Assembly (NCBI RefSeq): GCF_964355755.1
Contig: NC_092671.1
Location: 12,710,001 to 12,774,000, forward strand
Length of the DNA stretch: 64,000 bases
Source of the DNA: Antedon mediterranea
Lineage: Eukaryota; Animalia; Echinodermata
Reading direction: 5' to 3'
The notes under the pieces were generated by a model. That model worked only from the letters and a program-made list of their open reading frames with translations, had not been told where the DNA came from and ran no database searches. How positions within the stretch are numbered: the stretch's first letter is position 1; the number at the start of each line of letters is the position of its first letter. This document shows, piece by piece, positions 4,342 through 57,100 of the stretch. The position numbers and the translations under genes are program-made.

Positions 4342-4513
4342 GAGTGAGCGCCTAAAATTGCCTGAAACGTACTCTTATTTCACCGAAAATAAATTTTGAA
4401 AATTTTCGCATAGAGATACCGGACCGACAGACAGACCGACAGACCGACAGACAGACCGACCGACCGACCGACCGACATAGTGAACTATAGAGTCGCGTCC
4501 ACGCGACTAAAAA
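4342..4513 (-). mobile_element. 5' end of a Helentron-associated non-autonomous element (HINE/DINE-1-like)
   Basis: The minus strand reads TTTTT-AGTCGCGT-GG-ACGCGACT (inverted repeat 4491-4508), then a (GTCG/GTCT)n microsatellite (4421-4476), then a core similar to the 1.4-kb element at 23511-23575. T-run, inverted repeat, then tetranucleotide microsatellite is the known HINE 5' layout. Confidence 0.7.
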
Positions 4514-22474: not shown

Positions 22475-23130
22475 ATTGCCTTGTAACAATGCAAAGTCTG
22501 TCAATATATTCATATAAAACTGTTTGTTTGATTGGCATTATAACCAACCAGATAACTAATATTAATCCAGCTATATCGGCCTAATTTGTAAGATTTATTA
22601 AAAAGTATCCACTTCTTTATATCTAAGAGCCTAACTCTTACCTTGCTCGATCCCAGAAGAAGAAGTTGGGTGTGTACGTATTGCACCAACTTCGCTGTCG
22701 AACCAAGTATTCAGCTTCCTCATAAATTGTCCAGTGGAGTTATTATGCAAATTAAGATTACCGCATGCCTTCCACCGTAACGCTATTTCACTGTTAGTTA
22801 GGCTTTAAAAATAAAATATCAATAGTAAAATGTAATCTATTTTGATGATTAAAATAATAAATAAACACATTATAACTCTTCTGATTGATCGAGAATATAA
22901 CGGTGAACAGTAAATTAATTTTCCTTTCTCAGAAAGACAAACAATCGTAATCCTTAGCAAAAAATGTAAACATCGCCCTCAATAATAATTATGAATAGAA
23001 AAGAAAACAATAGTTAAACAATCAGTAGTATCTTATTTACACATTAGTATCTTCTGCGTGTGCCATTGGTTAGTTGGAACCTATCCGAAAAGCAGTCCAT
23101 GACATTGTAGACATGGGTAAGTGACTAGTT

Positions 23131-24619: not shown

Positions 24620-24645
24620 TTTCTTTATTTATTTATTTATTTATT

Positions 24646-25027
24646 AGGTTATATGCATGATATGCATATAACCTCTTGATTCTGTCAAAATCTTTATTTA
24701 TTTATTTATTAGGTTATATGCATGATATGCATATAACCTCTTGATTCTGTCAAAATCTTTATTTATTTATTTATTAGGTTATATGCATTATCATGCATAT
24801 AACCTCTTGATTCTGTCAAAATCTTTATTTATTAGGTTATATGCATGATATGCATATAACCTCTTGATTCTGTCAAAATCTTTATTTATTTATTTATTAG
24901 GTTATATGCATGATATGCATATAACCTCTTGATTCTGTCAAAATCTTTATTTATTTATTTATTTATTAGGTTATATGCATGATATGCATATAACCTCTTG
25001 ATTCTGTCAGAATCTTTATTTATTTCT

Positions 25028-25066
<39 letters not shown>
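24646..25066 (+). repeat. Stack of six 5' heads of the HINE-like element, separated by (TTTA)n
   Basis: AGGTTATATGCAT...ATGCATATAACCTCTTGATTCTGTCA.AATC begins at 24646, 24711, 24776, 24834, 24899 and 24968. Confidence 0.95.
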
Positions 25067-31000: not shown

Positions 31001-34000
31001 ACGGGCGCTTAAAATGTTCAAAATTGTCAAAATTTATTTTCGATGAAATTAGAGTACGTTTCAGGCAATTTTAAGCGTTTAAAAAATTGCCATGAGTGCG
31101 CAGATTTTTGCACGCGCACTGCGCGTTAAACGTTAATGCGCAATCTTTTTACCCGATTTCTGTTTTACAATTTTTCTTTAATAATATCATCATATTTGAT
31201 TCAGGTTTCAACTCGAAATTGCGTTATACGAGCACGTCAAAAGTGACTGGCTACGCACGTATAAGTTAACAAAATGGTGAAAATATGCTAAATTTTAAAA
31301 TTAAAATATATCGTCAGAATGCAGGGGAACACCTATTTTTTATTTCATTTTCTTAAAGTGTATGTATCATATGTATGATTTATTATCAAATAAAGAGAAC
31401 AAAAGTTGATTAAGTCATCATTAATTGCATATTAAATTAAAAAAAAATAATTTCGACAATCAAACAAATTATGACATTTTCTTAGGCCAAAATAACAAAC
31501 TTAACATTAACTTTCTTCCTTCAAAAATTCATATATTAAAGTTAAAAGTATGTAGTTTGACAGTGCATCATTTGTATACATTTTAAAGATGTCATCATAG
31601 TAAAAAATTATAATTCATTTTGGTATGTAATAATCTATTTGCATCAAAGTGGTTACTGCATAGTAAATACACGGAGGAATTTTTCTCCAACTTTTAGTCA
31701 GTTGTGTACGGCTCGGTGGTCTGTGCTCGTGTCTATGGCATTCAAGGTACCGAGATCGAGTCTCACCTTAGGAAACGAAATAAGATTTTTTTTTTATTAT
31801 CCGTATTGTTTGTTCAAATTTATTTCTTAGTGTATAGATTATACACATGATTTATAATGAAATCTAGATAAAAATTAACTTATGTCTTTATTATTATGTA
31901 ACAACAAATGTGGTTTATGACATTATATGCATATGGATCTTTGATCGGATTGTGATACCGGCTATGGTGTTCGCGTTAGCAAGGTCCTATCATATATTAT
32001 AAATAATTAAAGATTCTGAGAAAATCAATCAATCAATATATCTTTTAAAAATCAATTATCTTTATTTAAATCAATGCATATAACCTATAATTCGTCATAG
32101 TGACGAATTAAATCTAGTTTATTTATTTATTCTTTCCTTAGCACTATTTTGTCCGTGAATTATCTTGATATCAGTTTCATCTATCTAAGTCAATTTTTCA
32201 GAGTATATTCCTTATGGCCAGGAATCGATGTGGTTATATTTTCACGATGCGTAATCAAAAATTACGCGGTCTACGCGCGATTTTACGAAATCACGTTTGT
32301 AATCATATCTTCACAAGCATGAATCACAATTAAACAAAATTTGGTACTCATAAATTTCAGGTCATATTTCATCATATGGCAATACAATTACGTGCGTAGC
32401 GCATATAACGCTTGCGTACGCGCGCTTAAAATGTTCAAAATTGTCAAAATTTATTTTCGATGAAATTAGAGTACGTTTCAGGCAATTTTAAGCGTTTAAA
32501 AAATTGCCATGAGTGCGCAGATTTTTGCACGCGCACTGCGCGTTATACGTTAATGCGCACTCTTTTTGTCCGATTTCGGTTGTACAACCTTTCTTTAATA
32601 ATATCATCATATTTTATTCACTTTTCAACGCGTAATTGCCTTATACGAGCACGTCAAAAGTGACAGGCTACGCACGTGTAAGTTAACAAAATGGTGAAAA
32701 TATGCTAAATTTTAAAATTAATATAGATCGTCAAAATGCTCGGGAACACATATTTTTTATTTCATTTTCTTGAAGTGTATGTATCTTATGTATGATTTAT
32801 TATTAAACTAAGGGAACAAAAGTTGATTAAGCCATAATTGATTGCATATTAAATTAAAAAAAATTCATTTCGACAATCAAACAAATTATGACATTTTCTT
32901 AGGCCAAAATAACAAACTTAACATTAACTTTCTTCCTCCAAAAGTTCATATATTAAAGTTAAAAGTATATAGTTTGACAGTGCATCATTTTTGTACATTT
33001 TTAGAGATGTCATCATAGTAAAAAATTATAATTCATTGCGGTATTTAATAATCTATCTGCACCAAAGTGGTTACTGCATAGTAAATACACGGAGGAATTT
33101 TTCTACAATTTTTAGACAGTTGTGTATGGCTCGGTGGTGTGTGCTCGTGTCTATGGCACTCAAGGTACCGAGATCGAGTCTCACCTTGGGAAACGAAATA
33201 AGATTTTTTTTTTTTATTATCCGTATTGTTTGTTCAAATTTATTTCTTAGTGTATATATTATACACATGATTTATAATGAAATCTAGATAAAAAATAACT
33301 TATGTCTTTATTATTATGTAACAGCAAATGTGGTTTATGACATTATACGCAGAGGGATCTTTGATCGGATTGTGATACCGGCTATTGTATTCGCGTTAGC
33401 AAGGTCCTATCATATATTATAAATAATTATAGAATCTGAGAAAATCAATGAATCAAAATATCTTTTAAAAATCAATTATCTTTATTAAAATCAATGCATA
33501 TAACCTATAATTCGTCATAGTGACGAATTAAATCTAGTTCTTTCCTTAGCACTATTTGTCCGTCAATTATCTTGATATCAGTTTCATCTAACTAAGTCAA
33601 TTTTTCAGAGTATATTCCTTATGGCCAGGAATCGATGTGGTTATGTTTTCACGGTGCGCAATCAAACATTACGCGGTCTACGCGCGATTTAACGAAATCA
33701 CGTTTGTAATCATATCTTCACAAGCATGAATCACTTTTAAACAAAATTTGGTACTCATAAATTTCAGGTCATATTTCATCATATGGCAATACAATTACGT
33801 GCGTAGCGCATATAACGCATGCGTACGCGCGCTTAAAATGTTCAAAATTGTCAGAATTTATTTTCGATGAAATTAGAGTACGTTTCAGGCAATTTTAAGC
33901 GTTTAAAAATTGCCATAAGTGCGCAGATTTTTGCACGCGCACTGCGCGTCAAACGTTATTGCGCACTGTTTTTGTCCGATTACTGTTGTATAACCTTTCT

Positions 34001-34922
34001 TTAACAATATCATCATATTGTATTAACTTTTCAACGCCAAACAGCGTTATACGAGTACGTCAAAAGTGACAGGCTACGCACGTGTAAGTTAACAAAATGG
34101 TGAAAATATGCTAAATTTTAAAATTAATATATATCGTTAGAATGCTCGGGAACACCGATTTTCTATTTCATTTTCTTGAAGTGTATGTATCATATGTATG
34201 ATTTATTATGAAATTAAGAGAACAAAAGTTGATTAAGTCATCATTAATGGCATATTAAATTTATAAAAATTAATTTCGACAATCAAACAAATTATAAAAT
34301 TTTCTTAGGCCGAAATAACAAACTTAACATTAACTTTCTTCCTTAAGAAGTTCATATATTAAAGTTAAAAGTATATAGTTTGACAGTGCATCATTTAAAA
34401 AAATCTTTAAAGATGTCATCATAGTAAAAAATTATAATTCATTGCGGTATGTAATAATCTATCTGCACCAAAGTGGTTACTGCATAGTAAATACATGGAG
34501 GAATATTTCCATATTTTTTAGTCAGTTGTGTATGGCTCGGTGGTCTTTGCTCGTGTCTATAGCATTCAAGGTACCGAGTTCGAGTCTCACCTTGGGAAAC
34601 GAAACAAAATAAGATTTTTTTTTATTATCCGTATTGTTTGTTCAATTGTATTTCTTAGTGTATAGATTATACAGATATGATTTATAATGAAATTTATTTA
34701 AAAACACAAAATGTGGTTTATGACATTATATACGCAGAAGGATCTTTGATCGGATTACGATACCGGCTATTGTATTTGCGTTAGCAAGATCCTATCATAT
34801 ATTATAAATAACTAAAGATTCTGAGAAAATCAATCAATCAAAATATCTTAAATCAATCAATTATCTTTATTTAAATCAATGCATATAACCTATAATTCGT
34901 CATAGTGACGAATTAAATCTAG
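25067..34922 (+). mobile_element. Seven consecutive headless ~1.4-kb bodies of the same HINE-like element
   Basis: Each body starts TTCTTTCCTTAGCACTAT after 0-3 residual TTTA units (a longer tract before the first). Each ends in subTIR + hairpin + CTAG, at 26471, 27883, 29279, 30700, 32117, 33537 and 34922. Confidence 0.93.
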
Positions 34923-36811
34923 TTTTTATTGTAATATATCAAATGGATTTGCAACCCTACACGGTTTGTTGATGTATTTTGATTAATTTGTTTGTGAGTC
35001 TATGTAATTATTATTATATTATAATTTTATTATAGTCTATAACCACAATATAACTACGTTTTTCGTATTATATTATTTATTCATTCATTTTATTTTATTT
35101 TCTTTATTTCGAATAGTACATCTAAAAAATCATACAAAAAAGAACAAAAAGAGAAACAATTTCACCAAAAAATTTACAATAAGCAACTTCCTCAAAACTA
35201 ACCTACAATATCCTAAAATACAGATTTACACCAACGCTGATGTAGGTTGGATTGTGGAAATTATGATTTATGCTTCTTTTTTTTTAATTTAGAGTCGTTA
35301 AAACGACTCTAAATTTTTTCTCGATATACAAACTTACCGCAAACTAATTAGGGTCATATATAATTTCAATTTCATAATAAATTACATCGAAACGACAGTT
35401 AAAATGTACATGGTAATTGCCGTTAAAAAGTAGTAATTAATTGTTATACAGTGTTGTTAAAATAATACAGTTCTTCATGTTGTTAACATGCTATGGTTCA
35501 CAAAACACGACATCTAAAGCCATACCACGCTTTTGACAATTTTAGAAATCGCAAATATTTAAATCAATAATGACAACAATAAAGAGCCTGAAACTAACGT
35601 TACCTTAGACAATATAGCAAGTGGGGTAAAACTAGACTGTGGGTATTATGTTTTACAGCTTATTGTGAATAAAGAAAATGAGATTATTTGCTTTAGGATT
35701 GTGTTCGCTTTAGCTGTTATTTCATTGAGCTTGAGTGTGTATTTGTGTTACGGGTATGGAAATAATACATCAAAGAAATAGTCAAATAGCGCATTTATGG
35801 AGAGGTTTTCACTCGATCTTCCCACATACTTTATACTTAGGCCTATACCAACCTGTTACGTCGTATGCTTGATTATTTTGGGGTAGGGTGGGGGAAGTTA
35901 ATGTTATGATAGGCCTAGAGATAAAAATATAAAAACTAATGACTTTTATTTCGTGTGGGAAAATAAACATAAGTATTGTGGGAATCTTAAAATGTGAATC
36001 ATCATTGTACGTAATGCCTATTCATTAAACCCTGGTCCTATTGAAATTCCAATAAATCATACACATCTCAGGTTGAAAACAAGGTATTCTCTGTGTAATT
36101 ACAATTGGTTATAGCCCCTGTTCACCCAGCCATTCAATGTTACAGAAAACAAAAATTGCTTTAGTCTATAAACAACGTCAGACCACAGTTATTTATAAGA
36201 TATATCTCCTATTACTAAGCATGAATGTCTGGTAAAAAAAACCCATATAAAGTAATAATAACAATACTACGACACCACACAAATTATATAAATGTAAGAT
36301 TTCATTTTGTTTAAATTAGTCAGTATATAATCTGTTAATTGACCATTATATTTCTAAGAAAAATCTTGATCGATGAAAGTGGGTAAACATTTACTTACTT
36401 TAGATAACAGGACCCACTTATGGTCAGACACAAATGATTTATTGATCTTAGTAAGTTTATTCAAACTGGATATACTAATCCTAATAAGTAGAATCCTTGT
36501 TATAGGCAAAGTGTCCACTTATCAGGGCTATATTTTTATTCTGGCTTACGAAAAGTGAAACAATGATTAGGCAACGCATGTAGAAATTAATGAATTAACT
36601 TTTTAGAGATATCATTTTAACTGAGTCTTACTGTTATACTGATTTTTTGAATTGTTTTATATGTTTATGATGTATGTATTTGTGTTAATCTGGTCAATCA
36701 TCAATAAAATATAAGAACCAGACGGAGGCCTATGTACTGGTTGCCCCTCGTTCGTTTCACATTAATATGGTGTCAACTGTTATAATAATCAATATTCTAT
36801 TTCTCGCAGAT

Positions 36812-39800
36812 ATGGATGAAGACGGATATAGGGCTAATTATATCGAAGTGAAATTATGTGAAGTCGACAAATACTATGATATTTTTGAAGAAATTGGGAA
36901 GTAAGTTTTCAAATACATCACAATTTAAAAGGAGAATGAATAGAGAGAACTGGCAAGAAAAATGCTAATATTAATCGCTGAAATGGTTATATATTTTAAG
37001 GGTGTACCTATGTCTATACTTACTAAAGATAAATCAAGGTCTCATTATTAACAGAATCTGTTTAACGTTTCGAAAATGAATAACAATAATCATTTGTACC
37101 GTTGTATTTAATTGGTTACATGTTCTTGTTGCATGACCAATTATGAAAAGAGTGATCGATCCACCTTGATTTACTATCGGACAGTGTTGATAATTAGGTA
37201 TTATACAAAGCCGATTAGTTGCATTCCTTATTAAACAAATTAATAATCGTTGTATCTTGAACAACCTTGGTGGATCGGCAATTGAGATCGAATGTGGGTT
37301 ATTGCTATATTTAAATCCAATGTATGTATGTAAGATATGTATTTTTAATCAATTTTTACATTATAGGTGTTTATACAGATTGTAAAATGTTAATAGTTAA
37401 GTTATGAATTTCAATATAAATCAGAATAGGTATAATTCAATTTATTTAATAAGTGAATTGCTTGGGTACCGACTGCCAATCATTATAAGACTTCCAAGAT
37501 TAAATTCAATACGGTAGGTCTCGTACATTTTGGCCTAATGAATAAGTTAGCTGCTTGGGTACCGTACCGCAGTAAACAAGTAATATTAATTAGGCAAAAT
37601 CTGTCAAACTAGCCCCCTCCTAAAATAAACATTTCAATAGGCTTAATTCGTTAATTAATAAGTATGTCATTTGGATAAAGAGAAAAAAGGGCATTGGTTT
37701 ACAAATGTAATCATTATAATGCTGAATTTGCAAAAGTAAACTAAATCAAAAGGTCAGGCTATTTTTTTAGTACAATACACTTATATTTTGCATTTTACAC
37801 CAAGATAATTCGTGACGCGATAAATGTTTTTATAGTCTGCCATGAATACCACCGCTTTGTTTTCAAATTGAACGAGCGCTAAGAAATAACCAATGATCGC
37901 ATTGTTACCGTATAATCTTTATGACAATGCTTGATTAGTGCAGAACAGGCTTATTCAGTATTATATTAATCAGATACGTATAGTTATATTTGTATTACGC
38001 ACAGGAATTAAATGTACAACCACAATGAAAACAAATTGCTGTTCTCCTGACGTTAATCGATGTAGATTATCATGCCCATGTCCATTAATTTCAATACATA
38101 TTTTTACTAATATGTTATGTATAAATACATCGTACTATCATATTATTAGATAGTAGGTTTAACTTAACAGTTGAAATCAAAAGAAGTTGCTAATGACTAT
38201 ATGTAATATATATGACATTAAAAGGGTTTTCTCGTGTGAATATTATGGCCTACTCTTAATGTTTCAACTAAATATCTGATACACAAACTACGTGTATGAT
38301 GCACAATATAGCATACCTAATGATACGATGCTGTGATTTTAATTAAGTATATAATTATGTGTTTATGGCAATGATGATATAACAAGTATGATGCTATACT
38401 GATGATGTGGGCGATGATGCTGATTCGAAGACCAATACCAGTGCTACGTACTTAACGAACAAGGATAATTCTTTTACTTTAAGGGGTAGGTTCGGAGTTG
38501 TCCATCGATGTGTTGAGAAAGCTACCGGCAAGACATGGGCAGCAAAATGCGTTCGTGCCCTTCGTCGAAAAGACCGGGATGAAATCAAGAGAGAAGTTGA
38601 ACTGATGTCAATACTAGAGCACCCAATGCTACTACAATGTGGGGGCGCTTTTGAAGGGCGTTCTTCAATGACCATCATACTTGAACAGTAAGTATTCTCA
38701 TGCAGTTACTTAATTGTATTCTGTATTAAGTTTTAATTTATTTCTTTCTTATATTGCACAATCAACACCGGTACCACAATTTGGCGATGGTACACAATGA
38801 ACAATATACAACAAAGATTTGAAAAAAGTTAGGCCTACTATTAATAAAATCTCACCTTTTCAGTTTATACTGAATTTATAATTAGATAATCTGGGATCCA
38901 ATTTATAAACCAATTTATCAGATTTGAAAGACAGAATCACCGTGTGAGTTTTTAAAACAATATTGAAAAGAGCTGTTTATCGTTCCACTTGGAATATTTT
39001 CAAGGATCTAATTGCTTCTAGTTTTAAAAAGTATTTATAAATGGGACAATATTGAATTCATGATCTTTTAGAATATAAAATTAATTATGCTTGTAATTAA
39101 TTTCAAAGATTAGCTGCAAATTTGTAATCCTATCACCGTTTTTTATGGATCGATATAGGCTATATGAACCAACGTTTAAAAAATCACAAATTTAACTTAA
39201 TTTTGATGGGATCAAGAAAAATACGTTTATTCAATTATGTTGATTCAGAATATTTCCAGTTGTTGTTAATGTACGAAGTGTTCAATACTCACTTTTGTGC
39301 AATTCACCCATCTTGATTTATGTGATGTTTTCAGCGTATCTGGTGGGGAGTTATTTGAACGCATCATCTCCGATGACTTCGAGTTCTGTGAAAGCGACGC
39401 GGTCATCTTCATGCGGCAGATATGTCTCGGGGTACAACACATGCATAAACTGAACATTGTACACCTTGATCTGAAACCTGAGAATATAATGTGTATGGAC
39501 AAACGTAGTAATCGAATCAAGATAATAGACTTTGGATTGTCTAGGAAGTTGAAACCTGGAGAGGCAATGAAAGTGATGTTTGGAACACCAGAGTTCATTG
39601 CACCAGAAGTAATCAACTACGACCCTATTGAAACATTAACCGATATGTGGAGTGTCGGGGTTATCTGCTATATTTTGTAAGATTTACCATTAACATGCAT
39701 ATTAAAATTAAATATAATAATATAATATATCACGTAATGCATACTTATGAAGAATTTATTATGAAGGTGTATGTGTCATACAAATATAGGCATATTGATA

Positions 39801-42164
39801 AGAATAATTATGACGTTCTTAATGATGGCGCTATTTTTAATAGTCTTTCACACCTGTTCCGGCACGGTTTCGGTCCGGCAAATCGAACAGCAATGTTTCG
39901 TTTTCACGACGCTCCACGTGGCTATACGCCAATCGATATTCGTGTAGCAGCGTGAAAACGAAACATTGACGTTCGATTGGATTTTCCGGCGCCGGACCGG
40001 AACAGGTGTGAAATACACTTTAAACGTGTTTTTATTGTGATAATTTAGCATATCCCAACACATATAGCACAATTATGTACAAATTAATTTAATAACTAAT
40101 ATTAGATACTAAATGGTGAAAAGAGACGTAACATATCTAGCTACATAAGCATGTCATGATTACGTATTTGTATATAAAATGTGTATGTAGGTTGAGCGGC
40201 TTTTCGCCATTTCTTGGTGACTTGGATACAGACACTCTGAACAATGTAACTCGAGCGGAATGGGACTTTGACGATCCAGCATTCGACACTATTTCCGAAG
40301 ATGCTAAAGCATTCATTGAAGCATTGTTGATTAGACTTCCAAGGTAATGTATATCACACAGTACCTCAATGAAAATGAAGTGGTTTTTATCCACCATTTT
40401 TAAAACGGTTTGGCTGTTTACTTTGCAAATATTGTGTCTTCAAACAACTATAATATAGAGATGTCGTCATCGTTTTTTTTAATTCTCCACTAATACTGAT
40501 TATTATTACTTTGCAACCCAGTATGTGTGTCCATTGTATGTATTAATGATAAACAGGTGACACAAAGGGTTAAATGTTATAGTAATATTAATTCATGGTA
40601 CAGGACATTTCTGCCTTCATGAGGAAAGCGACCTTGAAATATGTTGTCGATTTACTCTGGGGACAACCCTTGGGGATGTAGCTATATAGTTGCTGCTACG
40701 TGTACTTAAATCAAAGTCCCAACTTCACAGAGTAAATGATAATAAACTAACACATCAAGACTCTGTGACACATTAATTATATATTATGGTCGTTTATTAA
40801 GACTAGTATTCTAAAATAAGGGGTTTTATACTCACTTTTAACTGCCAATAATCAAAAACATTTAATTAATTGATTTATTTAGAATACGAACCTTTTCGTA
40901 ATTCCAGCAATCTTTATCAAGGTAAATTTAAATAGGTTTATAACGGTCAAAAGTCATGTATTAATTCATGGGTTCGTTGGTAAAGTGAAATGTGTTTTAA
41001 TATCAAACAAAAAAGGGTGAACTAGCGTCATAACTGTACAAATTTGATTTACGATCAAGTGGCTGGCCAGTACTTAGCGATGGAAGAGAACATTCAAACA
41101 AGTGACTCCTTTTATTTTTCAGGAAGCGTAATTGTGCTGAAGAGTGCCTAAGACACGGATGGTTGGCTGGGGACACAAGGCCAAAGGAGACGACTCGACT
41201 TTCTACCGAAAAACTAAAAAGATACGTTGCTAAAAGACGGTGGCAGGTAAGTGATTTCAAGGATTAGTATAGCTTATGGAAGGCAATCGCCGCCAAAAAT
41301 ACAAAAGTAAAACAAACAACGTACTTTCACAAACGAACAACGTGCTTTCACAAACGAACGATCTAAATTAAAACAAACAACGTACTTTCACAAACGAACA
41401 ACCAACTTTCACAAACAAACAACCTACTTTCACAAACGAACGATCTAAATTAAAACAAACATCGTACTTTCACAAACGAACGAACTAATGTAAAACAAAC
41501 AACGTACTTTTACAAACGAACAACCTACTTTTACATTAACAGCGTATTTTTTTCAAACGGACAACGTACATTGGTAAACGAACAACCTGCTTTACCAAAC
41601 GATGTAGATTGCCGAATGAACTAAGGACTCGTCCATTTTCTAAGTCGGGTAATAAAGGTTTATCGAAAATACCTTGATTTCGCGAGAAACGTCATTGCAC
41701 AATGCATGCTGGGAAGGGTTTGGGAGCATAGCGCCACACCGGCGTATAATACAAACTTTATATGTGCAAAAGTTTCGATAAGAGGATATGACGTAGAGGG
41801 CGCTTAAAGCGAGCATTGCGCGCGTAAGCAAAACTCATCCTGACAAAACGCCGTCAAAACTACACGTGTGTAGATAGTAGTAGCTACCTTTTTACTGCAA
41901 AACGTATGCAATATGGCCGGTAACAATTCTGAGACCCTGAGTGAAGCAATTAGACTGTTGAACAGAGCAGTTGGACTTCTGGTTCAACATCCTCCTGGTA
42001 AGTACTACCATTTATTTTTAATTTTTGGATCTATTTATTATATTATTCCCTCTAACTGAATCTATACCATACTTCTGCTCAGTGTGTTGTTATAGCGACG
42101 GCTTGCTAGCATACCCACGAGCAGTACGTGATGGCCAACATGGAAGACTAGACCTTATTCAATA

Positions 42165-42195
<31 letters not shown>

Positions 42196-45100
42196 CAATA
42201 ACGTATTAAGTCAACACAGTATTAAAGATGGCCGGCAATAACTCACACAACCCGGGGAGTCATTATTTGTTTAGGCATTTCGAAGCTCTTTTTATTTGTA
42301 CTAATAATACTATGATTTTATTGTTTGCAATTGTAAAATTATAAAAAGTATGTGTCATTTTACGTTTTAAAAATCAACACCCATTGCCCGCTGACAGTGT
42401 GAGGTCACTGTTTTACCTATTTTCTAAACCACCACAGTGTTTTTTACTTGTGATTTAAGATCACTTCAAGTAGGTCATCAATCATTTTCGATAGTTTCTT
42501 AAAATAAGCCGAATATTCATAGATTCCTTACATATTTTTCTTATGAGCATTGCAGACCGTTGGATTTTAGCTAACTTTAGGGTTAATTTTTCATTATATA
42601 ATTTAGGCCTAAATAGAATTTTAATTTTTATATCATTCTAATGTTTGATATAAGGAACAATTATGAGTTGTTATTTAGTTCTATAATCGTGTTTTATATT
42701 CACAATTGCCAAATTAAGATGTTTGAATGCTAGCCAGCTGGGATTTACCATTATCACTCGGATGATGGTTATGTTTATTTTTCTGTGACCTGTTTAATGT
42801 TCATAATATACTAGTTTATGTTATTTTAATTTCTTTGGTTAAAAACTGTAATCAATATTTGTGGAAATTATTTTTAGTCATAATATAGCATGACCCCGCT
42901 TTATAATGGACGATGAAAAGTTGCATATGAACTTGGTATAACAAATGTAGATGAACAGCTCACTATAGGTACATATTAAAAATCACTGTTTGGTTGCAAC
43001 ATTTGCACCAAGAGATTCATATTTTAATTACTATTATGTAAACTGTTTTGCTTTAGATTCTGGTCCACAAGACCGTTCCGATAACAATAGGGAGTCTACT
43101 ACTACTACTACTACTACTACTAGGCCTACTAGTAGTAGTGGTAGTAGGCCTACTTCTAACATCGTGGATGAGCACAGGAGGCTATTCCGAAGAACACCAA
43201 TCGTAAGGATATATATATATATACAGTAAATTAAAAATGTGCTTTATAAACCTCATTATATAATATACAAAAGGACGTTTGCAAAGACAGTGTTACATTT
43301 AATAATGTAAGAGGGATAGATACCGGTACTACGTCGCGTTAGGATTTTTATACACAAGTATACAGGAGGGCAATTACTAACTTATTGGGTAACGGATTGA
43401 TAGCTGGTTCTTTAAAACCAACAATTATATTAGTCCGAATTATACTGATAATTTATCCATTTATATTGCGCAAATTTCATTAAAATATGTTCAAATTACG
43501 CATTTGGCCTTTCTCATGCCCCAGCTTCCTACCTCCTCCTGGTCTAAAGGGCCTTTCACACCTGTTCCGGCACGGTTTCGGTTCGGCGAATTGAACGCCA
43601 ATGTTTCGTTTTCACGACGTTCGACGCGGCTATGCGCCAATCGATATGCGCGTAGCCGCGTAAAAACAAAACATTGGCGTTCAATTGGATTTGCCACTAA
43701 TTGGAGGCCCTCAAACTGTCATCCTTATTTATATTTATAAACAATACCAATCCAAACAACAAACAAAGCCCATGCTCACATTGGCAAGACTAGTGACCAC
43801 AGGAATGGTCGAATAAATAGAAGACAAAATGAAAAAGAATCAATACATTTTTGGTTTGGCTTATATTAAGGATGACAGAGATAATGTTATACATAATATG
43901 TACAAATATTACACTGCCAGCCGCACACACCATTGAATACATAGGCCTACATACATTAACCTTAGCAAGATTTTCTATAATGTACAAACTCACTCTCATT
44001 TTTATTCCAGAGATGTTTTTGGCCTCAGCCATTGTGCTAAATGGGGAAAACTGTTAATTTGTTAATGACATTTTTCATTTACGTGGGTTTATTTTCTATA
44101 GATTCAATCTCGACGTGCAGCAGTCCGGCCTTACGCAATTTCTCCACGCAACACAAGTAAGACTTTATTGTTGAAAGTTTAAGCAAAAAGAAAATAGGTC
44201 TAAGTCGTACTTCATTGATATATAATATAAACATATAGGTTTGGTCTACCATACTTTCAAGTTTTAGCAGTAGAACTGAAATGAACAATATAATTTTGTT
44301 TTCAGTAAGACAATGGACAAAAGAAATCGTGTGTTTGCCAACAAAGGACTGCATTGAGGTACCGTCCCTATCATACCAGCGTATACTGCAGGCGAACGGC
44401 ATTGGTAAGAAAAAGATACGGTTTACCTGTAATGCAGATGCCGAAGAGGTCCGAAGTATACTATATAGGTATAGATTTACATTCTGACTTTGGCATGTTA
44501 TTAAAATATTACCCTCGCCCGAAGAGTATTGCATTCAAGATGTGGTTATGTAGGTCTATGTCTGTTCTAAATTCTGGAACTTTGAATTTACTTTGAAACA
44601 TAACTTTGGAGACGACCTATAGTGTTTCAATTCTATAGCGGGGCCTTTTATTACATTTTCTGAAGTCGGTATTAGGTTTCAAAATTTGTAATCTTTCTCC
44701 ACAAAAATATGACAACAAAAACCTTATAGGTACACTATATTATTACATATAATATTGCAATTGAATTGAAAGATTCTTTTCTATAAACTGACGTTTTCTG
44801 TTACGGTATTCAATGGAAATGTTATGTAATGTACGTGTGGAATTAGCCGAAACGTTTTAGGCAATACATTATGATGTCAGAGCTTAATAGGATGTAAATA
44901 ATTACAATGATGAAGACATATCGACATTCGGTATTTTATTACACTTTCACAATATGAAATTAGTTAATTTCCCCATTTTAAATATTGTTGAAAATTAGGA
45001 AAATTTAAACATAGCAAAAAACTTCCAAAAGCGGGAAAATTGAAATCTGTAACTGGTGGTGTACATGCAAAAAATAAGATATACCTGGCATGCGAATGTA

Positions 45101-48100
45101 AACAGTAGTAGGGAATCTTTAATTATAACACTGTAACCGGTAAAATAACGTGGTTTGTTTTCCCCTCCCATTGAAGTTCTTTTCCGGTGCTGCGAGACAC
45201 TGGAGGAATAGAATATTTAAGGGCGAAGGAGATGTCCAGAACTCAGTTGGTGTTTGTGGTGTCCGGCTTTTTGTCGGTTGAAGAAATGCGGCCTCTCTCA
45301 ACGGGAAGACTGTACATCAGGCCGTTACAGAAGGACATACCAATTGACCCGCTGGCCAGGATCGAGGGATCTATGGAAGAGACTTGTCATGTGTGCGGTC
45401 AAAGTATGCTATCAAGTCAAATACGAGAACACCTTGTTGAGTGTACTCCGAGCACATCCTCGCATGAGGTAGGCTATGTATATAAAATACCACCATCACA
45501 ATCATAACATTTTGCCATCCAAATAGTTTGTTTGCCTTTCTCCGCCGCCTCTAAAATTTGAATTGATATGAAAAAGGTTGCTGGACGAATTTTTGCTGTA
45601 AAGTATTCGAAGCAATCGTCAATAAGGCATAGTTAAATATAAACAAAAATATAGATAATATATTGCCTGGCTGAAATTCGGAAGAACAATTAAACATGAT
45701 AGTCAATCGGGGAGGGAAAATGGGTATATTTAGGCCTTGCTGTCGTCCTAGCTGTCGACCGATTCAAATACACAAATTATTTAAATGAATGTATTATGAA
45801 TATTGATTCCTTTAGAATACTGCAAGCGTGCCTATTACAGTTCCTGACAGTGATAATGATGATGTTGATGAACTGCTAGATGTCATCATCGACGCTCCTA
45901 TACCGGTAGTAAATGACAGGTAGGTGCAGGCGTTCGTCTGATTGAATGAATAATAATATAAAGATTATTGTACTGTATTTGGCACATGCCTGAAACAAAG
46001 CCACACAATGTCAGTTTATAATACAATACACTGTACTACAAATAAAACAGCCAACTCCTCTTAGCAGATATGAAGACAATTCAATAGAAGGACACTCAGT
46101 CACAACAATACAACCAGTGACACAACCACCAGTCTCGTTACAGACACTTCAAGATGTGTTAGCTGAATGTCTGAGTAAAACGTGAGTAACTACTACTGTT
46201 TCTGAATTATGAATTTAGTCTTTATGTTTTGGTGCAAATATTATGAAATTGATGCTGGTGACAAATATTAAGAGAAGAAAATGTAGTTGATGCTGAATAT
46301 AATAATGATAGTGGTGGTGGTGTTGGTGGTGTTGGGAGTAATGATCAATGAATGATAATATTCATTATGTAATTTCCATTGGTTTTCGCGTAGAACACCA
46401 TGTAATGAACGTTTATGATTTCTTATTTTAATAGGAATGAGGTGAGCGATCCGGTGGAGGTATTAAGGGTATACCAACATACGTTTTTGCGTGGCCGACC
46501 ACTGGATCAACTTGTGGAGACAGAGGAATTGGAAGGGGAATCTCTTCCAATATATGCATCTAGAGATGATATTTTTGAAACCGGAATGGCAGAATTAATT
46601 GAACAGCCTGGCGATTGGCAGCCATTCCGGTTACCCTTAGATGTGACATTTTATGGTGAGGAGTCCATCGACGCTGGAGGTCCACGAAAGGAATTCTTCG
46701 TGCTGATGCTGCAGGAACTTCTGCAAGAAGAGAGGAGGATATTGCAGAAGGATGATGATGGCAGGTACACCATAACTCAGGACGTCACTCAATTGAGAAA
46801 AAAGTATTATTATGGTGCGGGTCTTGTATGCGGTGAGTATTACTATTGAACTCCACTACATAAGGCAAAATAGACTAGATTTCATGTGTCCGTATCATTC
46901 AGCAAACACCGATAGACTGCTTTTTATGTTGGAAGAGGGTGGAATTGGCAGAAGCAAGCTACAATAGCCTCTTAATGAAATGTTTTTTCAATAGCGAGTA
47001 TTGATGTCTTTTTCAGGTCTATCAATGTTACAAAATGGACCACTGCCTTGTTTCCTGGCGGAAACTGAAATCGAGGCCATGTTAAGTGATGACACTGCAC
47101 AACAATCGGAAAGTCAAACGCAGTTTAAGGAAGGCTTCAACAAATTGGGGCTGATAGATGTAAGTTTGAAAGACATAAGTGACAGATTGGGTATTGCAGT
47201 TTGGCTTTATTATGTTTGTGTATTTGTGTCCGCGCGGGCATCTCCATTGATCTCCGATTCACCCGGATATTTGTTCTTATTCAGAATATTGGCCTAGGTC
47301 TATTGCTGAAACAAGAATAAATAGATCCTTTTTCGTGTTCTCCTAATATTTTTTTTACCTACATTTACGAAATCGCATTATGACTATGCGCTGTGTCAAA
47401 TTAATGTATTAATTACATTAAAATCGGCCACTCGCGAACGTCAAATTATTTAGTGTTTATTCCACAACTTCGTTGGGACGATTTTTTTCCAAATCCCAAC
47501 ATGCGTGCGTTTTTAGGCCTAAGCCTAACACTAGAATTTATCGAGGATCTAGTACGCGAGCGCTAAATATTCTTTATACGCGTATACGATTCATCTCCGA
47601 CACAATCGGCAAAGTTGAACATGGTTGAACTTTGCCGATTTGACTGCGATGAATCAGGGAGCCTTCCCGATTGCGTCGGCGACATCTGCGCGTGTAGCGA
47701 TTTTAATGGAAACGCTGTAGCGATTTTAATGAAAACCAGGCTTAACGCGCTCTAATTAGATTCATTGTTATTTTGGTTGACACTCTGACAGGTTTCCTAA
47801 TAATATGTACCGTAGCCTCTCTATTCAGTGCTGCTCTCGATTGTCGTAATGCCATTCATTTTTACTATTTACAAAAAGCTGCTTCGGGCGAAACCAATTG
47901 TTGTATTCCTCCTGCGACCGACAGCACGAAAGGCCCTGACAAACAGGATGATTCTTTCAATACTGAAGCCGGAATTCTCAGAAAGAGGATCAAACCAACG
48001 GAAAAGAGAAGACGGTGTGTACACAAAATTGATCCGATATGTAAAGGATGTAGCTGGTATGCATAACTGTTCCTTCATTATTTCGTTTACAAACAATGAT

Positions 48101-51100
48101 AATTCTAATGAGATAGATACATTTCCATACAACACACCCACGCCAAACACACACACACCATGGTGGGGAGAGGGTATCGAAATGAACTTCATCCGTCTGT
48201 CTGTTTCACAAGGCAAAAACATTGGTCCAATTTACTTACAATCTTGAACTGTGTATAGTTACTATAAATAACTACTAAGTATGTATGCCCACGTTTAGTA
48301 CCCACATACGTATGTATGTATGTATATACAGTATATTGTAGCGTAGTTCATGGTTTATCCACATTTAATAGTATAATTATTTCTAACTTATAAATATACC
48401 TCATGTTATGATTATATTTGTATAATTATGTAGGCCTAATATTTGTGTTTTTAATCAATTAAAAGTGTAAATTATGTATGGTGATAGAGTTGCAACATTA
48501 AATGTTGTCTTGTCATTATAACCTGTATTTTTTATTTTATGTATAGCTGGTAGACGAAGGGGTGTATCTTTGGAGCGGATCCTTCGGTTTGTGACCGGGA
48601 CGACAGAGCCTCCAATTCTCGGGTTCGCAATGCAACCCAGAATCGTTTTTGTTGAGGGGAGAAGCATTTTCCCCTCAAGTTCAACTTGCACAAATACGTT
48701 GTACCTGCCTACAAACGTATCCGATGTGCAAGACGAACAGCTGTACGAAAGATATGACGAAGCCTTTCTTTCCAATTACTTTGGAATTGTTTAAGTGTAT
48801 ATACAGCAGTATAATGTTCGTATGTGTGAGTGATCATTTTCCACCGTCCGGTTGTAAAAATAATGACGCATAAATTAATTCAGTGGCGGACGCAAGGGTG
48901 TCGCCCCAGTTGCCCGGGCAACACCGTTAATTTCATACCAAATGTTTTTTTTCTGTCACTTAAATTTTAGATCCCATTTCATTATTTATATATATATATT
49001 AACCATTAATCTCCTTGCATTGATGATATAACAAAGTGCTTGTTTTACCTCTTAAATACATTGTATATAGTAATTGTATTATAATATAGTAATATGTCTT
49101 TCGGGTATGAAGCGTCTCACATACACACAGAGCCAAAATAATATCTTGGACCTGCACTGTGTATGGACTCTAACCTTACGGTTTTCATTAAACACATCAT
49201 TCCATGCTATCCATTCTAAACTTCTTATTTCAAACTTTTGCATTCCTCTCATTCATCTCATCCTTTTTTGTCTTGGTGAAAAGGGAGGGTATTTCATATT
49301 CCTCCTCTGAGTTTATAGCCTCTCTACCCGAACACGAACAGAATAGAATAATGACTACTGTCATAACTACGTTTTTAATCAATTTTTATCATCTTTTTAT
49401 TGTCATTTATATATTTTAATTAATTGTATTTTTAAACATGTATATGATTTATGGAACCTGATTTTGACAATGTATCATATAAATTAGCGAAAAACAATAT
49501 ATTTTAAAATAATATTTAAATGTACACACATATACTTATAACAGAGCATTATAAAAGTTGGACGAAGCCACACAAGAAAAAAAAAACCATTGACGTTATA
49601 AAAGTCCAGGATTGGGAGAGTCTATATGTAAATTTATGACTGCAGCGTAAAATTCAAAGACTATTGTGTATAATTATTTGTTTTTACTGATATTTAGCTA
49701 GTATTTCAAGAGCTCGTATGAACAATGACGGCTCCCAAATATTTACATTACTGTTAATTATTACATCCATTTCATTCCTGAACTGTAACAGTTGTTCTTC
49801 ACCGAGAGGACATACAGTTTCCGGTACAACAATGCCAATTTCATCACCACTATCTGAAGGAGCGCAATCCCTATCAAGCCCGAACTGATCTGCATCTTCC
49901 TGAAAGAATAATGCAGTACGGTATAGATTTGTGATGTCGGTATTTATTTTGATATATTGGTGTCTGTAAACCGACTTACATGCAACGGCGCAGATCCGTT
50001 TTTAATAGTGAGGGGAAGGGACTTATAAAAATGAAATACATTGCGAGCAAAGCGAGTAACTAGGCTGGGGGACAGGGGCGCCACTGGTTATATTCACGCA
50101 AAATGTATTCTTCTTATTACTGAAATTACATACGATATGTCGATTGAAGTCTTACTTTCTATTTTGTTTCACCCCAATTTAATGATTTTGCTGTTGAAAA
50201 AAAAGATGGACAATCCCCGGCCCCCACTAGTAAATATGTATCCCCTTCCCCTCCCCCAGGATCTGCGCCGGTGCTTACGTGTGAATCATTTTGGTAAGTT
50301 AGATGCAATAGAAACCAATGCTTGTATGCTTTACATTATTTCTCTAACCTCTGTTAACAACTCGAAGTACTCGGATGATATAATACTATCCTCGCAGGCT
50401 ATATTCTGCATTCCCATAATAAAGAGCTGATTTGGTGTTTTATGGTGCTCCGTTCGCAATTTGTGATTGTTCCACATGTTTACAAACTCTTGTAACATTC
50501 TGTTGATAATAGGGCAGTATATATAATGTAATAGAAAAACGTGACATTCGTCATCATTACATAATATGCCAAGGTGTTCAATGTTCTTGAAGAAAGTATA
50601 CCATGAGCCAATCACAGCATCGAATACATCTCTCCATAGTCGTTCAATTCTAGTGTTGTGAACGCTACGTCCCGTGATAAAGCTTCCCCTTCCTGGTCCT
50701 CTGGAAGGATGATGGAGCATGAACCGAGCAACATCCACATTCTCAACACCCATGTCTGCTCTAACACGTGACGGTAATCCCCACACCCGTACTGCTTCCT
50801 CAAAACAATGTAAAACCGTTGTTGCCCTATTGTCTGTGTTACATCTGAGGTACACAAGTGCTCGGCTATATCCATCTACGCCACCATGTATCACAAACCT
50901 CCACCTGTTTAAAAAGAAAAAAGGTGTAGTAGTTTGTTGGGTGTTTTTGTCTGGTCATGGTGCAAGAAGGTTATATAAAACAACGTATTACCTAATGAGT
51001 TTGTGATTTCCGTCAATGTGAAACAGACTCAAAGGCGAATGAACCGAATATCGTCTTACATTCAAGCATGATGTCAATGCTCGTCTTTCTGGGCGGACAC

Positions 51101-54100
51101 GATGTAGTGAATCCCGCACCCGGTTGCGCTGTACAATGGTTCCATTAGCTATTAAGTGTGCGAGTACACTTTTCCAGCCTATAAAAAAATTGAGTGTAAC
51201 ATATAAATAAATAAATATAAACATATGCAATATGAACGAGTATGGAGTATGGCGCAAATGTTTTTTTTTAAATTGAGAGTCTATCTCCCAACGTATTAGG
51301 CCTGCATACTATATACCGTATGTTATAATAGCAACAACATTTACTCATTTACTTTGTGAAGCGCCTTCTCCGAATAAGCGCCGCACTCAAGCCCTCACAA
51401 ACACGCGGTGACTACTATAGTATATTTTTTGGGAGGTCCATATAGTTCATAGCAACATAATAAATAAATTGTATCGGTTCGATACATTTATTAAACGTCG
51501 CGATGTTTACAACTTTACTATAATAAACTGAGGTAGTCATATAGTACTGTACGTTATATAATAATTTATGATAGGCCTAAGCCAATATGGTTTGGTGCGG
51601 CACTTATTAGGGCATTTACAACATCATTTATTGATTGATTGATTTATTTATTAAGAAAACAATGAAAACAATACAAAAGCAGAATGTGCAACTGTGATAA
51701 TGATGTAGACCTTGATCATTAAAACGATGCATTTATAGTAGGCCTATAATATCATTGTTTAAACTAACACACCTGAATTAGGAAATGAACCAAGTATCCG
51801 TTCAATTTTGTTGTCCAGGTGGTCATCGGTTATATTGCTGTACTTCATACTCATAGATATCCCTGCTTCTTGTAATCGTCGCTCTATCGTCCGCTTACTG
51901 ACACGCAGAAGACCACTCATATCTTTCACAGTGAACCCATTTTCTGTATATTGTATAATTATTAATACATTCAAGTTGACATGCCATTTATTTCAATGAT
52001 TGAATTGTGTAGGTAGATTATAGTTAAAATGTTATGAATACACACTCAAACCATAATGCCAATTGTCCAATCCGGTGTCTACTCTCTTATATAGATTTAT
52101 GCACCTCTGCCTTTGTCAGCTTTCTACAAGCGCAATAGGCCCAAGTTACTTAGAAACTCTAGAGAGTGCATTAATGGCAGTGTGTTAACATGCACGTTCG
52201 ACTTTTCACTCGCGAGCGCACATGTTACGTACTACGATTAAAGCGTCCTCTAGATTTTATATCGAAATGAAGGTCTCTAATTAAAGACCACTTTTGAGAC
52301 CGATGTTTTAATTGGGTTTAGCAGCTTTGGCCTCTAATTAACTTTAATTAAGGACTGCCTAAGTTTGGTTAGAAGAAAACTAATAGAACTACTGAAGCAT
52401 GCATACATGTAATATTTATGAATACATGAATACATGTAAACGCAGTTTATTTGACAAATTCATTGTTATGATGCAGACATAAATTGCTTTTGTAATTAAA
52501 ATTTGAGGTGTGCGACAAATTGAGGAAATTGGGGTTAACTGAGGACAATTTGGGGTTGTCGGTGACGGTGGTATCCAGAAATATATAAACTAAGTAAGGA
52601 GGGGCGAAAAAACCTCGGAAAATGCGATGCCTAAATTAGTTAATTAAATCTACTATAGTACTTCACACATGTCACGTGGGATTTTGCGGCCACTACAGAA
52701 GTATACATTTAAATTACACTAAACACATAAACGCATTACATACCAATAAAAAATAACAGCTGTACTTCAGTGATGAGTAATCTGGGTCTACCTGGAAGTG
52801 AACCGTGAACAGTCTCAGGCCTATAGCCAAAAACACTTGTAGGCCTAAAAGTATTACCATGCTGACTTTCTTTAAATATTCGAGATGCTTCAAAGATGAG
52901 TGATACAATTTCGTTTTCTATACCAAATGTCAGACAGTCCCTGCATATGCCATCAAGTAAATGCACAGACGGTTGAATAGCATTTTGTTGTTCAATCTCT
53001 AGCAAATCAATTACCTCAGTAAGGCGTATACGTATCCTGGTTCGATCCTCGTCGTCCATGTTTGTATAGTTGCTTGTTTGTTTTTTTAATTCTAAAAACA
53101 CCTTATTTTTTATACCCGACTTAGAAAATGGACGAGTCCTTAGTTCATTCGGCAATCCACATCGTTTGGTAAAGCAGGTTGTTCGTTTACCAATGTACGT
53201 TGTCCGTTTGAAAAAAATACGTTGTTAATGTAAAAGTAGGTTGTTCGTTTGTAAAAGTACGTTGTTTGTTTTACATTAGTTCGTTCGTTTGTGAAAGTAC
53301 GATGTTTGTTTTAATTTAGATCGTTCGTTTGTGAAAGTAGGTTGTTTGTTTGTGAAAGTTGGTTGTTCGTTTGTGAAAGTACGTTGTTTGTTTTAATTTA
53401 GATCGTTCGTTTGTGAAAGCACGTTGTTCGTTTGTGAAAGCACGTTGTTCGTTTGTGAAAGTACGTTGTTTGTTTTACTTTTGTATTTTTGGCGGCGATT
53501 GCCTTCCATAATAGCTAGCGTAGTTTATATAATTTACCTTTCTTTCATTATAGTTTACCGGTCCCGCGTAATGGTTTATGATGTAGGGCGAATTGTTGTT
53601 TGCATTGACGAGTTTGTTTCCGCTTTACCAAGATTATGGAAGGCAATCGCCGCCAAAAATACAAAAGTAAAACAAACTACGTACTTTCACAAACGAACAA
53701 CGTACTTTCACAAACGAACGATCTAAACTAAAACAAAGAACGTACTTTTACAAACGAACAACCTACTTTCACAAACAAACAACCTACTTTCACAAACGAA
53801 CGATCTACTTTCACAAACGAATGAACTAATGTAAAATAAACAACGTACTTTAAAAAACGAACAACGTACTTTTACGCGAACAACGTATTACAAACGGACA
53901 ACGTACATTGATAAACGAACAACCTGCTTTACCAAACGATGTAGATTGCAGAATGAACTAAGGACTCGTCCATTTTTTAAGTCGGGTATAAAAACACCAC
54001 ATGACCTGAGGAAAATAAAATGTTGTTAATAGTGAGCTCTCTATATAGAGTATACACTATATAACTACATACAGTGTAGCATAGGTAAAATTATGGGACC

Positions 54101-57100
54101 CGCCTTTATTTTAATTTTTATCATTATGACGTCATCAAAATGAACACGAAGATAGCAATTTTGGAAGGAATTTATCAACAACATATTAACGTGTAGAAGA
54201 ATTTGGATGCGTAGAATATAGATGCGCGCTATTTTAAATGAACTATGACGCAAAAGATAAAAATACGACTTTTATAATTCAACTGGCCATAAAATGATGT
54301 CACAACATCCGATACGCAACATTTTTACATGAATTCGTATCTAGAATTCAACATCTTCCAGAAAACGTTTCATGAGGGTCACTTTTCCTCCATTTGTCAG
54401 GATGAGTTTTGCTTACGCGCGCAAGATACAGGCTGCTCGCTTTGAGATCCCTCTAAGGCATATCCTCTTATCGGAACTTTTGCAATTACCCGACTTAAAA
54501 AATGGACGAGTCCTTAGTTCATTCGGCAATCTACATCGTTTGGTAAAGCAGGTTGTTCGTTTATCAATGTACGTTGTCCGTTTGTAAAAAATACGTTGTT
54601 CGCGTAAAAGTAGGTTGTTCGTTTTTTAAAGTACGTTGTTTGTTTTAAATTTGTTTGTTCGTTTGTGAAAGTATGTTGTTCGTTTGTAAAAGTACGTTCT
54701 TTGTTTTAATTTAGATCGTTCGTTTGTGAAAGTAGGTTGTTCGTTTTTGAAAGTAGGTTTCGTTTGTGAAAGTACGTTGTTTGTTTGTGAAAGTACGTTG
54801 TTTGTTTTACTTTTGTATTTTTGGCGGCGATTGCCTTCCATACAAGATACTGTATGCCAAGTTGATGTACAGTATAACATATCACTATTACTACTGAGAT
54901 TAGTTTTAAGCATTTGAGCATAAATAGGAGAATAGTAGGCCTAGTTTTAATTCTTGTAGGCCTACGATACAAACAGTTTTCAACACAAAAATGTATGAAC
55001 TTATATAGACTAAATCATTATTAGTTATTCACTTCTACTGAACCATTTTGAACATCCAGGTCCCTAATACAATATTACTCATTGGAATAAACCTGTATAT
55101 GATTTCCTTTCTGATAAAGCAGAGGATATATCAGGCACAGATTAAGCACATTAAAAACCCAATGTGCATTCTAATAACCCGGATTAGTCAGTGCCACCAA
55201 GAGGCATCGGCAATGATCTAAAAAAGTTATTTCGATGTTAGGCTTGCTATAATGCAATGTAATGTTATAACATGTCTTTTATTGCTATTGCTATTGTACT
55301 ATTGGTTAAATATACGTGTGTGTTATAAGATTGATGGTTATGATGTGCTTATAGTCTCCCAGGGTTAACAAAGTCTAACCTGTTTTTCCGACAACAACAA
55401 CTTCATTTCGATTCTAGAACGTAGTTAGACATTACTATTTTCGCTATTAATTATTAAGTCTTAAATATTTAAATGAAGTCGTATTAAAATGAAGTCTTAT
55501 TAAAATCAATAATATTGCAGTAGTAAACTACATGGTAAAAATATGTCCTTAGTAGGAGGAATGGCCTTCCAGACATACCCCTGTGTGTAATCTGTCTAAA
55601 CACCATTATACTCCATTGTATGTCAGTTGTTTTGTTCTCCAACAAACTCGAATACTGAAGGTACATTATTTTGTTTGTTAATCCACTTCTTTTTCTCTTG
55701 TATTTACATTGATACTGAGTTTGGTTCTTAAGTCAATTAGTAAAGTATTGTTAACCACTCGTGCATTTACCATTATTTACAAGGGAATGTGTCTCATAAG
55801 TGAGACATTTCGTTTATATGGTATCTCCAATCTAACCTCGAAAAAGAAAATCCCGTTATTGTATAAAACTAACAAGAGCAAACTTTAATACGTATATTGC
55901 TTTTATTAGATGGAAATGTATACTATTTTTAATTAGTGTAGCAAGTTATTTTGTTTTCATCGGTATGAATAAATGTAAATGGATATGTTTTATTAAAAGA
56001 TCATGAAATCAGAAATTCGGTTAGAGTCATTATTAATTATTAATTAATATTATTATTATTATCAATTTATAATTACAGAAAACAGCAATTGCATTACGAG
56101 CGATCCATCGAATGAACGTCTTAACGATGTTTGGAGGAAAGTCTGAATCTAATTCTGCTGGAAAATCAACCACACTGGAGAAACCAGACGAACTTAGTTC
56201 GACCGAAGAACAGAAACCATCCACTAAACGTGTATCGCGATTAAGACGACGAAACAGCATTGTTGATGAAGTCAGACAAAAGTTTGAACCGAATAACAAC
56301 GACCCATCCATTGGCATTGATGTTTTCAAAGAAACGATGTTTACAAAGGACAAAACAAGAACCATAATGGCAGAGAAAACACAAACATTTACAAAGTACC
56401 AGATGCCTTCGGCTATACTCGACACTTTGAAAGACCAATGTGTTTGTAAAGGAGACACTGTAAAGTTTATCTGCAAAATTAATGGCAATCCAAGGCCCGA
56501 AGTTTGCTGGTTTAAAAACGGTGACGTCATCGATGAAAATAATCATTTCAAATTCGAGTTTGATGATATATGTCGATATTCTTTGATAATCAACCATGTG
56601 ACTGAAGATGATTTTGGTCGGTATTCAATCAAAGCAAGCAATACACTAGGTGAATGTGAATCTTCAGCTAACCTGTGCAAAAAGGGTGAGTTTTTTTTAA
56701 TTAATTTAAACGAAATGTATTATTTTTAATAGCGCCCCCTATTTAAACTATGTTATAGTTGTGAAAAGTTTCCGCTTTTTTCAAGTAAACAGATTCAATC
56801 ATCATGCGTACGGTATTAACTTAAAGTGAAAAACACCACTAGAAATTCCTATTGACAACCTGATATTAATAATTTTTCTCTTTTTTTCTTCATTGGATTA
56901 TCACTACTGCTATGATTTCCGGGTTCAATCAATAGATCAGTGAATTGTAATTATCTACAAAATAAATACTAAACATATCAATTAGTTATTTTGCATTAGG
57001 CCTACAATTGACAAAAGAATTAACGTTTATATGCATAGCCATTGTCATAGATTCGAAAACACTAATTAAAATTAGTCTGAAACTTTGTATGTGAACTTTA

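Follow-up and report, generated by a model that had tools for sequence, protein, structure and literature searches.

The window analysed here comprises 64,000 nucleotides of Antedon mediterranea contig NC_092671.1 (positions 12,710,001 to 12,774,000, forward strand). Within it lies an IS3EU-type DNA transposon that carries two genes, one for a DDE transposase and one for a HECT-domain protein. As the original prediction, made from the letters alone, had proposed, both are multi-exon genes with open frames that converge inside a single unit bounded by terminal inverted repeats (TIRs) and a target-site duplication (TSD). In window coordinates, and with protein lengths in amino acids (aa), the features are:

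41275–53510: IS3EU/GingerRoot DNA transposon, 12,236 bp, starting TATGG and ending CCATA
41269–41274: left TSD, ATAGCT (the empty-site joint shows 6 ambiguous letters)
53511–53516: right TSD, ATAGCT
41275–41650, + strand: left TIR, 376 nt, TATGG terminus, made of 21-nt subterminal repeats
53114–53510, − strand: right TIR, 397 nt, CCATA terminus
49684–53059, − strand: DDE transposase, helix-turn-helix (HTH) plus rva_4 core, 481 aa, 5 exons (53059–52744, 51943–51773, 51178–50992, 50904–50349, 49899–49684)
41913–48794, + strand: HECT gene, 11 exons, 641/642 aa, convergent to the transposase
+ strand, HECT exons 1–6: 41913–41997, 43057–43202, 44102–44156, 44306–44468, 45177–45468, 45816–45919
+ strand, HECT exons 7–11: 46068 (or 46065)–46181, 46435–46832, 47017–47159, 47879–48056, 48547–48794
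44306–45348, + strand: ubiquitin-like (beta-grasp) domain, exons 4–5, about aa 97–205, no Pfam family
45370–45450, + strand: C2HC zinc finger, about aa 222–239, weak match to Pfam zf_C2HC_14 (E 0.06)
46435–48794, + strand: shortened HECT domain, exons 8–11, with GGPR motif, catalytic Cys and −4 Phe

The element has TAYGG..CCRTA termini, TIRs longer than 30 bp, a 6-bp TSD and an IS3/IS481-like DDE transposase. The same termini, TSD length and core are given for the IS3EU/GingerRoot superfamily of Repbase in the excerpts of PMC10045372, PMC6839031 and PMC12730594, the last of which supplies the definition of the termini. The predicted IS3EU-type identity is thus almost certain, judged by termini, TSD and a transposase core compared with Repbase cores by eye from the paper text. 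Between the two TIRs there are 2 substitutions and a length difference of one 21-nt repeat unit. In 4/4 sequencing runs, from 3 studies under two organism labels, contigs pass from 41268 straight into 53511, skipping the element and one TSD copy; one of these runs, X1, may be the source of the window itself and does not count as independent. It follows that the insertion is polymorphic. The element is intact and was inserted recently, an age first proposed from its perfect TSD and near-identical TIRs and supported here.

In both gene models all introns are GT-AG and the frame runs without a stop; the splice junctions are predicted from homology and GT-AG phase. The transposase retains the catalytic triad (D218, D275 and E312), and its exon 4 matches Pfam rva_4 (PF24764) at E 6e-70, with weak NCBIfam matches of the protein to IS481/IS3. 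The model is 68% identical to a protein of Anneissia japonica over 464 columns. Exon 4 matches 476 proteins at E ≤1e-30 among 980 candidates, the best again from A. japonica (78%), which makes a crinoid the probable host, and these relatives span a sponge, cnidarians, molluscs, a brachiopod, nemerteans, echinoderms, a hemichordate, a tunicate and fish. By eye, the core motifs agree with Repbase IS3EU-1_CVi and IS3EU-4_DR; the nearest Repbase entries are the [12 protein letters not shown] ones, namely IS3EU-1_CVi, IS3EU-1_SK, IS3EU-3_CGi, IS3EU-6_CGi, IS3EU-3_DR and IS3EU-4_DR. A search of viral contigs returned no relatives of either the transposase or the HECT gene.

Residues 63–642 of the HECT model can be aligned to a protein from Antedon (33%, E 1e-90). 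Exon 7 has tandem acceptors, the first giving a protein of 642 aa and the second one of 641 aa; the copy from a second sample, labelled organism B, has an extra base inside the first acceptor, which favours 46068. The exon-10 acceptor is weak, yet it is supported by the Anneissia relative; an alternative upstream acceptor at 47816 was rejected, as the short form fits that relative.

HECT domains transfer ubiquitin via a catalytic Cys. That residue (Cys608, 642-aa numbering) and the Phe at position −4 (Phe639) are both present, as had been predicted together with the intact D-D-E triad, and the last exon clears the Pfam HECT threshold (PF00632; 34.8 bits against a cut-off of 23.9). The HECT and beta-grasp folds were modelled on relatives (protein P0002 and locus sequences) standing in for the window protein. 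In the P0002 model (predicted local distance difference test, pLDDT, 78.8) an ordered domain at 111–209 is followed by a small finger, then by a disordered linker and the HECT domain; against HUWE1 this shows the bilobal HECT fold with Z 21.6 and a root-mean-square deviation of 3.1 over 272 aligned residues. The ubiquitin-like domain, folded alone from locus sequences, reached a pLDDT of 93, and its structure matches were beta-grasp domains only (Foldseek best E 0.003; VIA Z 5–7), with a resemblance to adaptor domains such as UBX. A Pfam search of this domain in the family members gave no family in common. It matches 2742 clusters of a 50% identity library at E 0.001, and its ESM Atlas matches are unnamed clusters only. 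The C2HC finger, which we take to be UBZ-like, shares its ligands with P0002, and in relative P0225 the zf_C2HC_14 match reaches E 1e-5.

The original prediction had missed a complication: most of the canonical E2-docking region is absent from this HECT lineage. Over the aligned range the domain has 307 residues in the P0002 model versus 383 in HUWE1. The spacing from GGPR to LxFxTG is 171 aa in the window protein versus about 248 in AREL1, with a median of 158 among 69 relatives, and the corresponding N-lobe spacing in profiles is 141 versus 223 in E6AP. Aligned with a sister subtype of IS3EU HECT proteins, the window lineage shows about 65 gap columns directly behind the QNGxxP loop. That sister subtype (loci L050, L051, L076, L078 and L080) retains a complete N-lobe and matches HUWE1 over the whole length of the domain; the loss is therefore lineage-specific. 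The missing stretch is the E2-binding small subdomain of the E6AP–UbcH7 structure. Judged by the P0002 model, the window protein would share the bilobal fold of canonical HECT E3s (HUWE1, UBR5, SMURF1 and E6AP) but not the N-lobe stretch that forms their E2-binding subdomain. The catalytic Cys is kept in 91/93 protein relatives that have a residue there, Phe or Tyr occupies position −4 in 86/93, and the C-lobe is the best-conserved portion of the domain. With these residues kept while the N-lobe is short, the active site is conserved and the usual E2 dock gone. The catalytic Cys would probably become charged with ubiquitin; ligase activity is uncertain because most of the canonical E2 dock is lost.

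To place the pairing of the two genes in the wider family, metagenomes were scanned with a transposase alignment and the best 80 of 558 confirmed stretches were kept; the scan patterns took in the HIDGNHKL subtype of IS3EU, the YDKL subtype, also in Repbase, lying outside them. HECT-family sequence was found downstream of the transposase and on the opposite strand at 37/80 loci with iterated profiles, a share that rises with the available flank (29/40 loci with at least 2 kb, 23/30 with at least 3 kb). HECT sequence lay upstream at 1/18 loci and, among the 80, at none downstream on the same strand. As the iterated profiles include their own hits, Pfam served as a check: 35 of 39 C-lobe fragments match HECT at E ≤0.01, 27 of them beyond the curated cut-off, covering 34/80 loci, and reversed fragments gave 0 matches. 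One fragment (L071) is 9.7 kb from its transposase and may belong to another element. Complete TAYGG..CCRTA-bounded elements could be drawn around the transposase in seven cases (5.9–10.2 kb), and 7/7 contain the HECT gene; four have a 6-bp TSD, one a 5-bp match, one none, and one lies at a contig edge. When transposases are grouped at 70% identity, no two of the seven share a cluster, and at 90% identity HECT is present in 31/64 clusters. The pairing is not a one-off but family-wide: other members do carry the gene.

The loci also show other arrangements. At L006 (11490–16156, − strand) two long open frames of 945 and 604 aa, convergent to the transposase, occupy the HECT slot and have no match in Pfam; its sister copies L004 and L016 carry the HECT gene there. 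At the seven HECT-less loci with 3 kb or more of downstream sequence, some of the scanned frames belong to host genes or to a BEL retrotransposon. At L059 (759–1154) the transposase and a ubiquitin-like/HECT gene stand head to head. Contigs L081–L084 are labelled as bacterial metagenome-assembled genomes, yet hold intron-split genes of eukaryote type, and are probably host contamination.

The two phylogenies, whose comparison the original prediction had called for, show partial co-divergence. In a set of 29 loci plus the window (6 redundant loci were dropped; L071 and L047 have no near C-lobe), distances between transposases and between C-lobes correlate with a Mantel rho of 0.28, reached in 3 of 5000 permutations. 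Several clades recur between the trees, among them the one that joins L033 to the window, and the catalytic Cys is present in 30/30. Mean identity across the set is 27% for HECT versus 55% for the transposase, so HECT evolves twice as fast, and the added domains of the HECT proteins vary, being gained and lost among relatives. Between the window and organism B copies, 40 of 41 differences, over exons 5–9, entered a selection test: 10 coding differences are synonymous and 4 non-synonymous, giving a ratio of non-synonymous to synonymous change (pN/pS) of 0.12 (binomial p 1.4e-4), and the other 26 are intronic, as are 6/6 indels. The gene is not evolving neutrally; it is under purifying selection. 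In L017/L023, the sole clean pair among 10 locus pairs, pS is the same for the two genes (0.21 and 0.20), with pN/pS of 0.11 in the transposase and 0.33 in HECT; in 5 distant pairs pN/pS is saturated. In annotated genomes, where 6 HECT clusters were examined, the window lineage occurs as multiple dispersed copies at 90% identity or above: Ostrea edulis has 10 gene ids spread over 6 long contigs, and the copies lie on 4 contigs of Dreissena polymorpha and on 3 of A. mediterranea. From the locus counts (37/80 and 7/7 complete elements) and the selection on the gene, HECT is very probably a dedicated accessory gene of the element, as first proposed.

A second enzyme gene opposite to the transposase, within the TIRs, has a counterpart in rust-fungal IS3EU elements, which according to the excerpt of PMC12730594 have an alpha-kinase in the opposite-strand slot, beside an anti-silencing TET/JBP gene. 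The window element differs in that its second enzyme is a HECT-domain protein, with no kinase or TET gene inside. The structure and function of IS3EU elements are described as largely unexplored in the excerpt of PMC11934779. The IS3EU texts, in the parts available (PMC10045372 with its supplement, PMC12730594, PMC11934779, PMC6839031, PMC4455052 and bioRxiv 2021.09.26.461848), make no mention of HECT or ubiquitin, Repbase/Dfam entries lying outside this search; nor did the available parts of PMC4255032, PMC2837046, PMC3673628, PMC6431247 and PMC8195603 yield a HECT–IS3EU link. We found no report of the HECT–transposase pairing in this literature, and Repbase may already note it: entry names ending in 1p/2p suggest that a second protein is annotated there, and the chance that a HECT is already noted for IS3EU is not far short of even.

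Among host proteins, the class IV HECTs (G2E3, GL-Metazoa and GL-Bikonta), as given in excerpts of the HECT survey PMC3673628, likewise have a highly divergent animal HECT domain; those excerpts do not mention transposons. Compared by domains, G2E3 has three N-terminal PHD/RING-like fingers; the window protein combines a ubiquitin-like domain with one C2HC finger, and its Cys is kept. For P0002 Pfam returned nothing but HECT, and for the window exon a single weak C2HC finger; where G2E3 has its PHD/RING fingers, the model shows the beta-grasp domain. As to the proposal that 'G2E3-like' gene models are transposon genes, the dispersed multi-copy relatives in oyster, zebra mussel and crinoid fit mis-annotation, but none of those examined is named G2E3 and the fingers are absent.

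The surroundings of the element include a smaller relative:

53635–54842: non-autonomous 1.2-kb element, same termini, TIRs 86–89% identical to those of the large element, own 6-bp TSD CAAGAT

It lies 124 bp from the large element, and its interior has very high depth in the sequencing runs. The element family predates the 41275–53510 insertion. Both elements share one intron of a kinase gene on the + strand (38392–41247 and 56073–56726), which has Pkinase exons upstream of the intron and an I-set Ig exon downstream and which, from its motifs, we take to be myosin-light-chain-kinase-like. The large element starts 27 bp past the host splice donor, with its HECT gene on the host gene's strand, and chimeric splicing of the two is conceivable from this layout. 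High-depth repeats are nested in the introns and spacer of the element (about 41700, 42300–42900, 43545–43700, 47520–47745, 49200 and 50000–50270); the organism B contig is ~200 nt shorter over 47511–48345, which fits the absence of one of them. Elsewhere the window holds large tandem arrays (1–4341, 4509–6980 and 23199–34925, with units of about 579, 185 and 1416 bp) and, at 9535–22537 on the − strand, a long Thr/Asn/Val-rich protein spread over many exon-like open frames; Pfam matched neither of the two longest frames.

DDE transposases cut at TIRs and duplicate their target, and from this established behaviour and the empty site the DDE enzyme would move the element by cut-and-paste; it may also mobilize the 1.2-kb element. 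For the second gene, the reading we favour, at slightly better than even odds, is that the HECT protein serves the element as a ubiquitin ligase of its own, working but non-canonical. Its ubiquitin-like domain and zinc finger would recruit the substrate or a ubiquitin-charged E2, replacing the lost subdomain, and the ligase would tag host proteins that silence or restrict the element. We lean, on indirect evidence, towards host factors as its object because HECT evolves twice as fast as the transposase, its domains vary and the slot in fungal IS3EU holds another protein-modifying enzyme, and we hold this host-directed role tentatively, at somewhat less than an even chance. A number of observations weigh against the explanation as a whole. 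The N-lobe is about 65–90 aa shorter than in canonical HECTs, and the HECT of the related host protein G2E3 is reported as non-functional (PMC3673628, in excerpt). A single assembly supplied five of the seven complete elements, and three assemblies account for the whole set; HECT is missing at 7/30 loci that have 3 kb or more of downstream sequence, and closing termini are absent from all of these. A HECT-first scan of prokaryote assemblies found 4 contigs with the transposase at 1/4, two of them ending early. At L084 (4823–13645) the two genes are head to head, not convergent, and co-divergence is modest, with shared hosts a factor that could contribute to its signal; gene swapping or rearrangement thus occurs in the family. 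Five close locus pairs are noisy or empty for selection (L004/L016, L044/L063, L068/L070, L072/L073 and L007/L009), the HECT ratio of 1.9 in L004/L016 being distorted by frameshifts or resting on few differences. The results indicate no particular host target.

The second protein of Harbinger elements partners its transposase, and by analogy the HECT ligase might instead target the transposase or transpososome of its own element, either to adjust turnover or to set off disassembly once integration is complete. The fixed convergent layout, the co-divergence with the transposase and a family-wide ubiquitin-like domain resembling adaptors such as UBX would fit this, but the co-divergence is only partial (rho 0.28) and a kinase occupies the same slot in fungal IS3EU; we regard it as unlikely. 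Distinctly less probable is a pseudo-ligase, a decoy or scaffold that would bind ubiquitin, E2 or host ligases without ligation. The lost E2-docking region points that way, as does the reported inactivity of G2E3 (PMC3673628, in excerpt), whereas the retention of the Cys (91/93) and of an aromatic residue at −4 (86/93), in the best-conserved lobe, speaks against it. Host gene fragments are acquired by Selaginella GingerRoot elements (PMC6839031, in excerpt), so that recent capture of a host gene, carried along as a neutral passenger, had a precedent; the whole gene is open with pN/pS of 0.12, and the same layout in 31/64 transposase clusters, together with the co-divergence, has already largely refuted this account, which we consider very improbable. 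The host-directed ligase remains our preferred reading.

The element belongs to a known superfamily; its accessory HECT gene was absent from the literature searched, and its HECT domain has lost the canonical E2 dock. Nor did that literature describe animal DNA transposons that bring along a dedicated enzyme of the ubiquitin system. An intact, polymorphic copy would offer a direct test of whether a transposon uses ubiquitin against its host or with it, and a HECT that keeps its Cys without an E2-docking region would be novel, either as an enzyme variant or as a decoy. A broader picture, which we put forward as doubtful, is that an animal-wide branch of IS3EU has a ubiquitin ligase as its standard second gene; the window lineage would then be a minimal HECT that lacks the E2-docking subdomain and uses a new family of ubiquitin-like domains (2742 clusters), and many dispersed 'uncharacterized HECT' models in corals, bivalves and echinoderms would be such transposon genes. 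Dispersed HECT gene models of invertebrates may be transposon cargo rather than expansions of host families, which affects gene counts.

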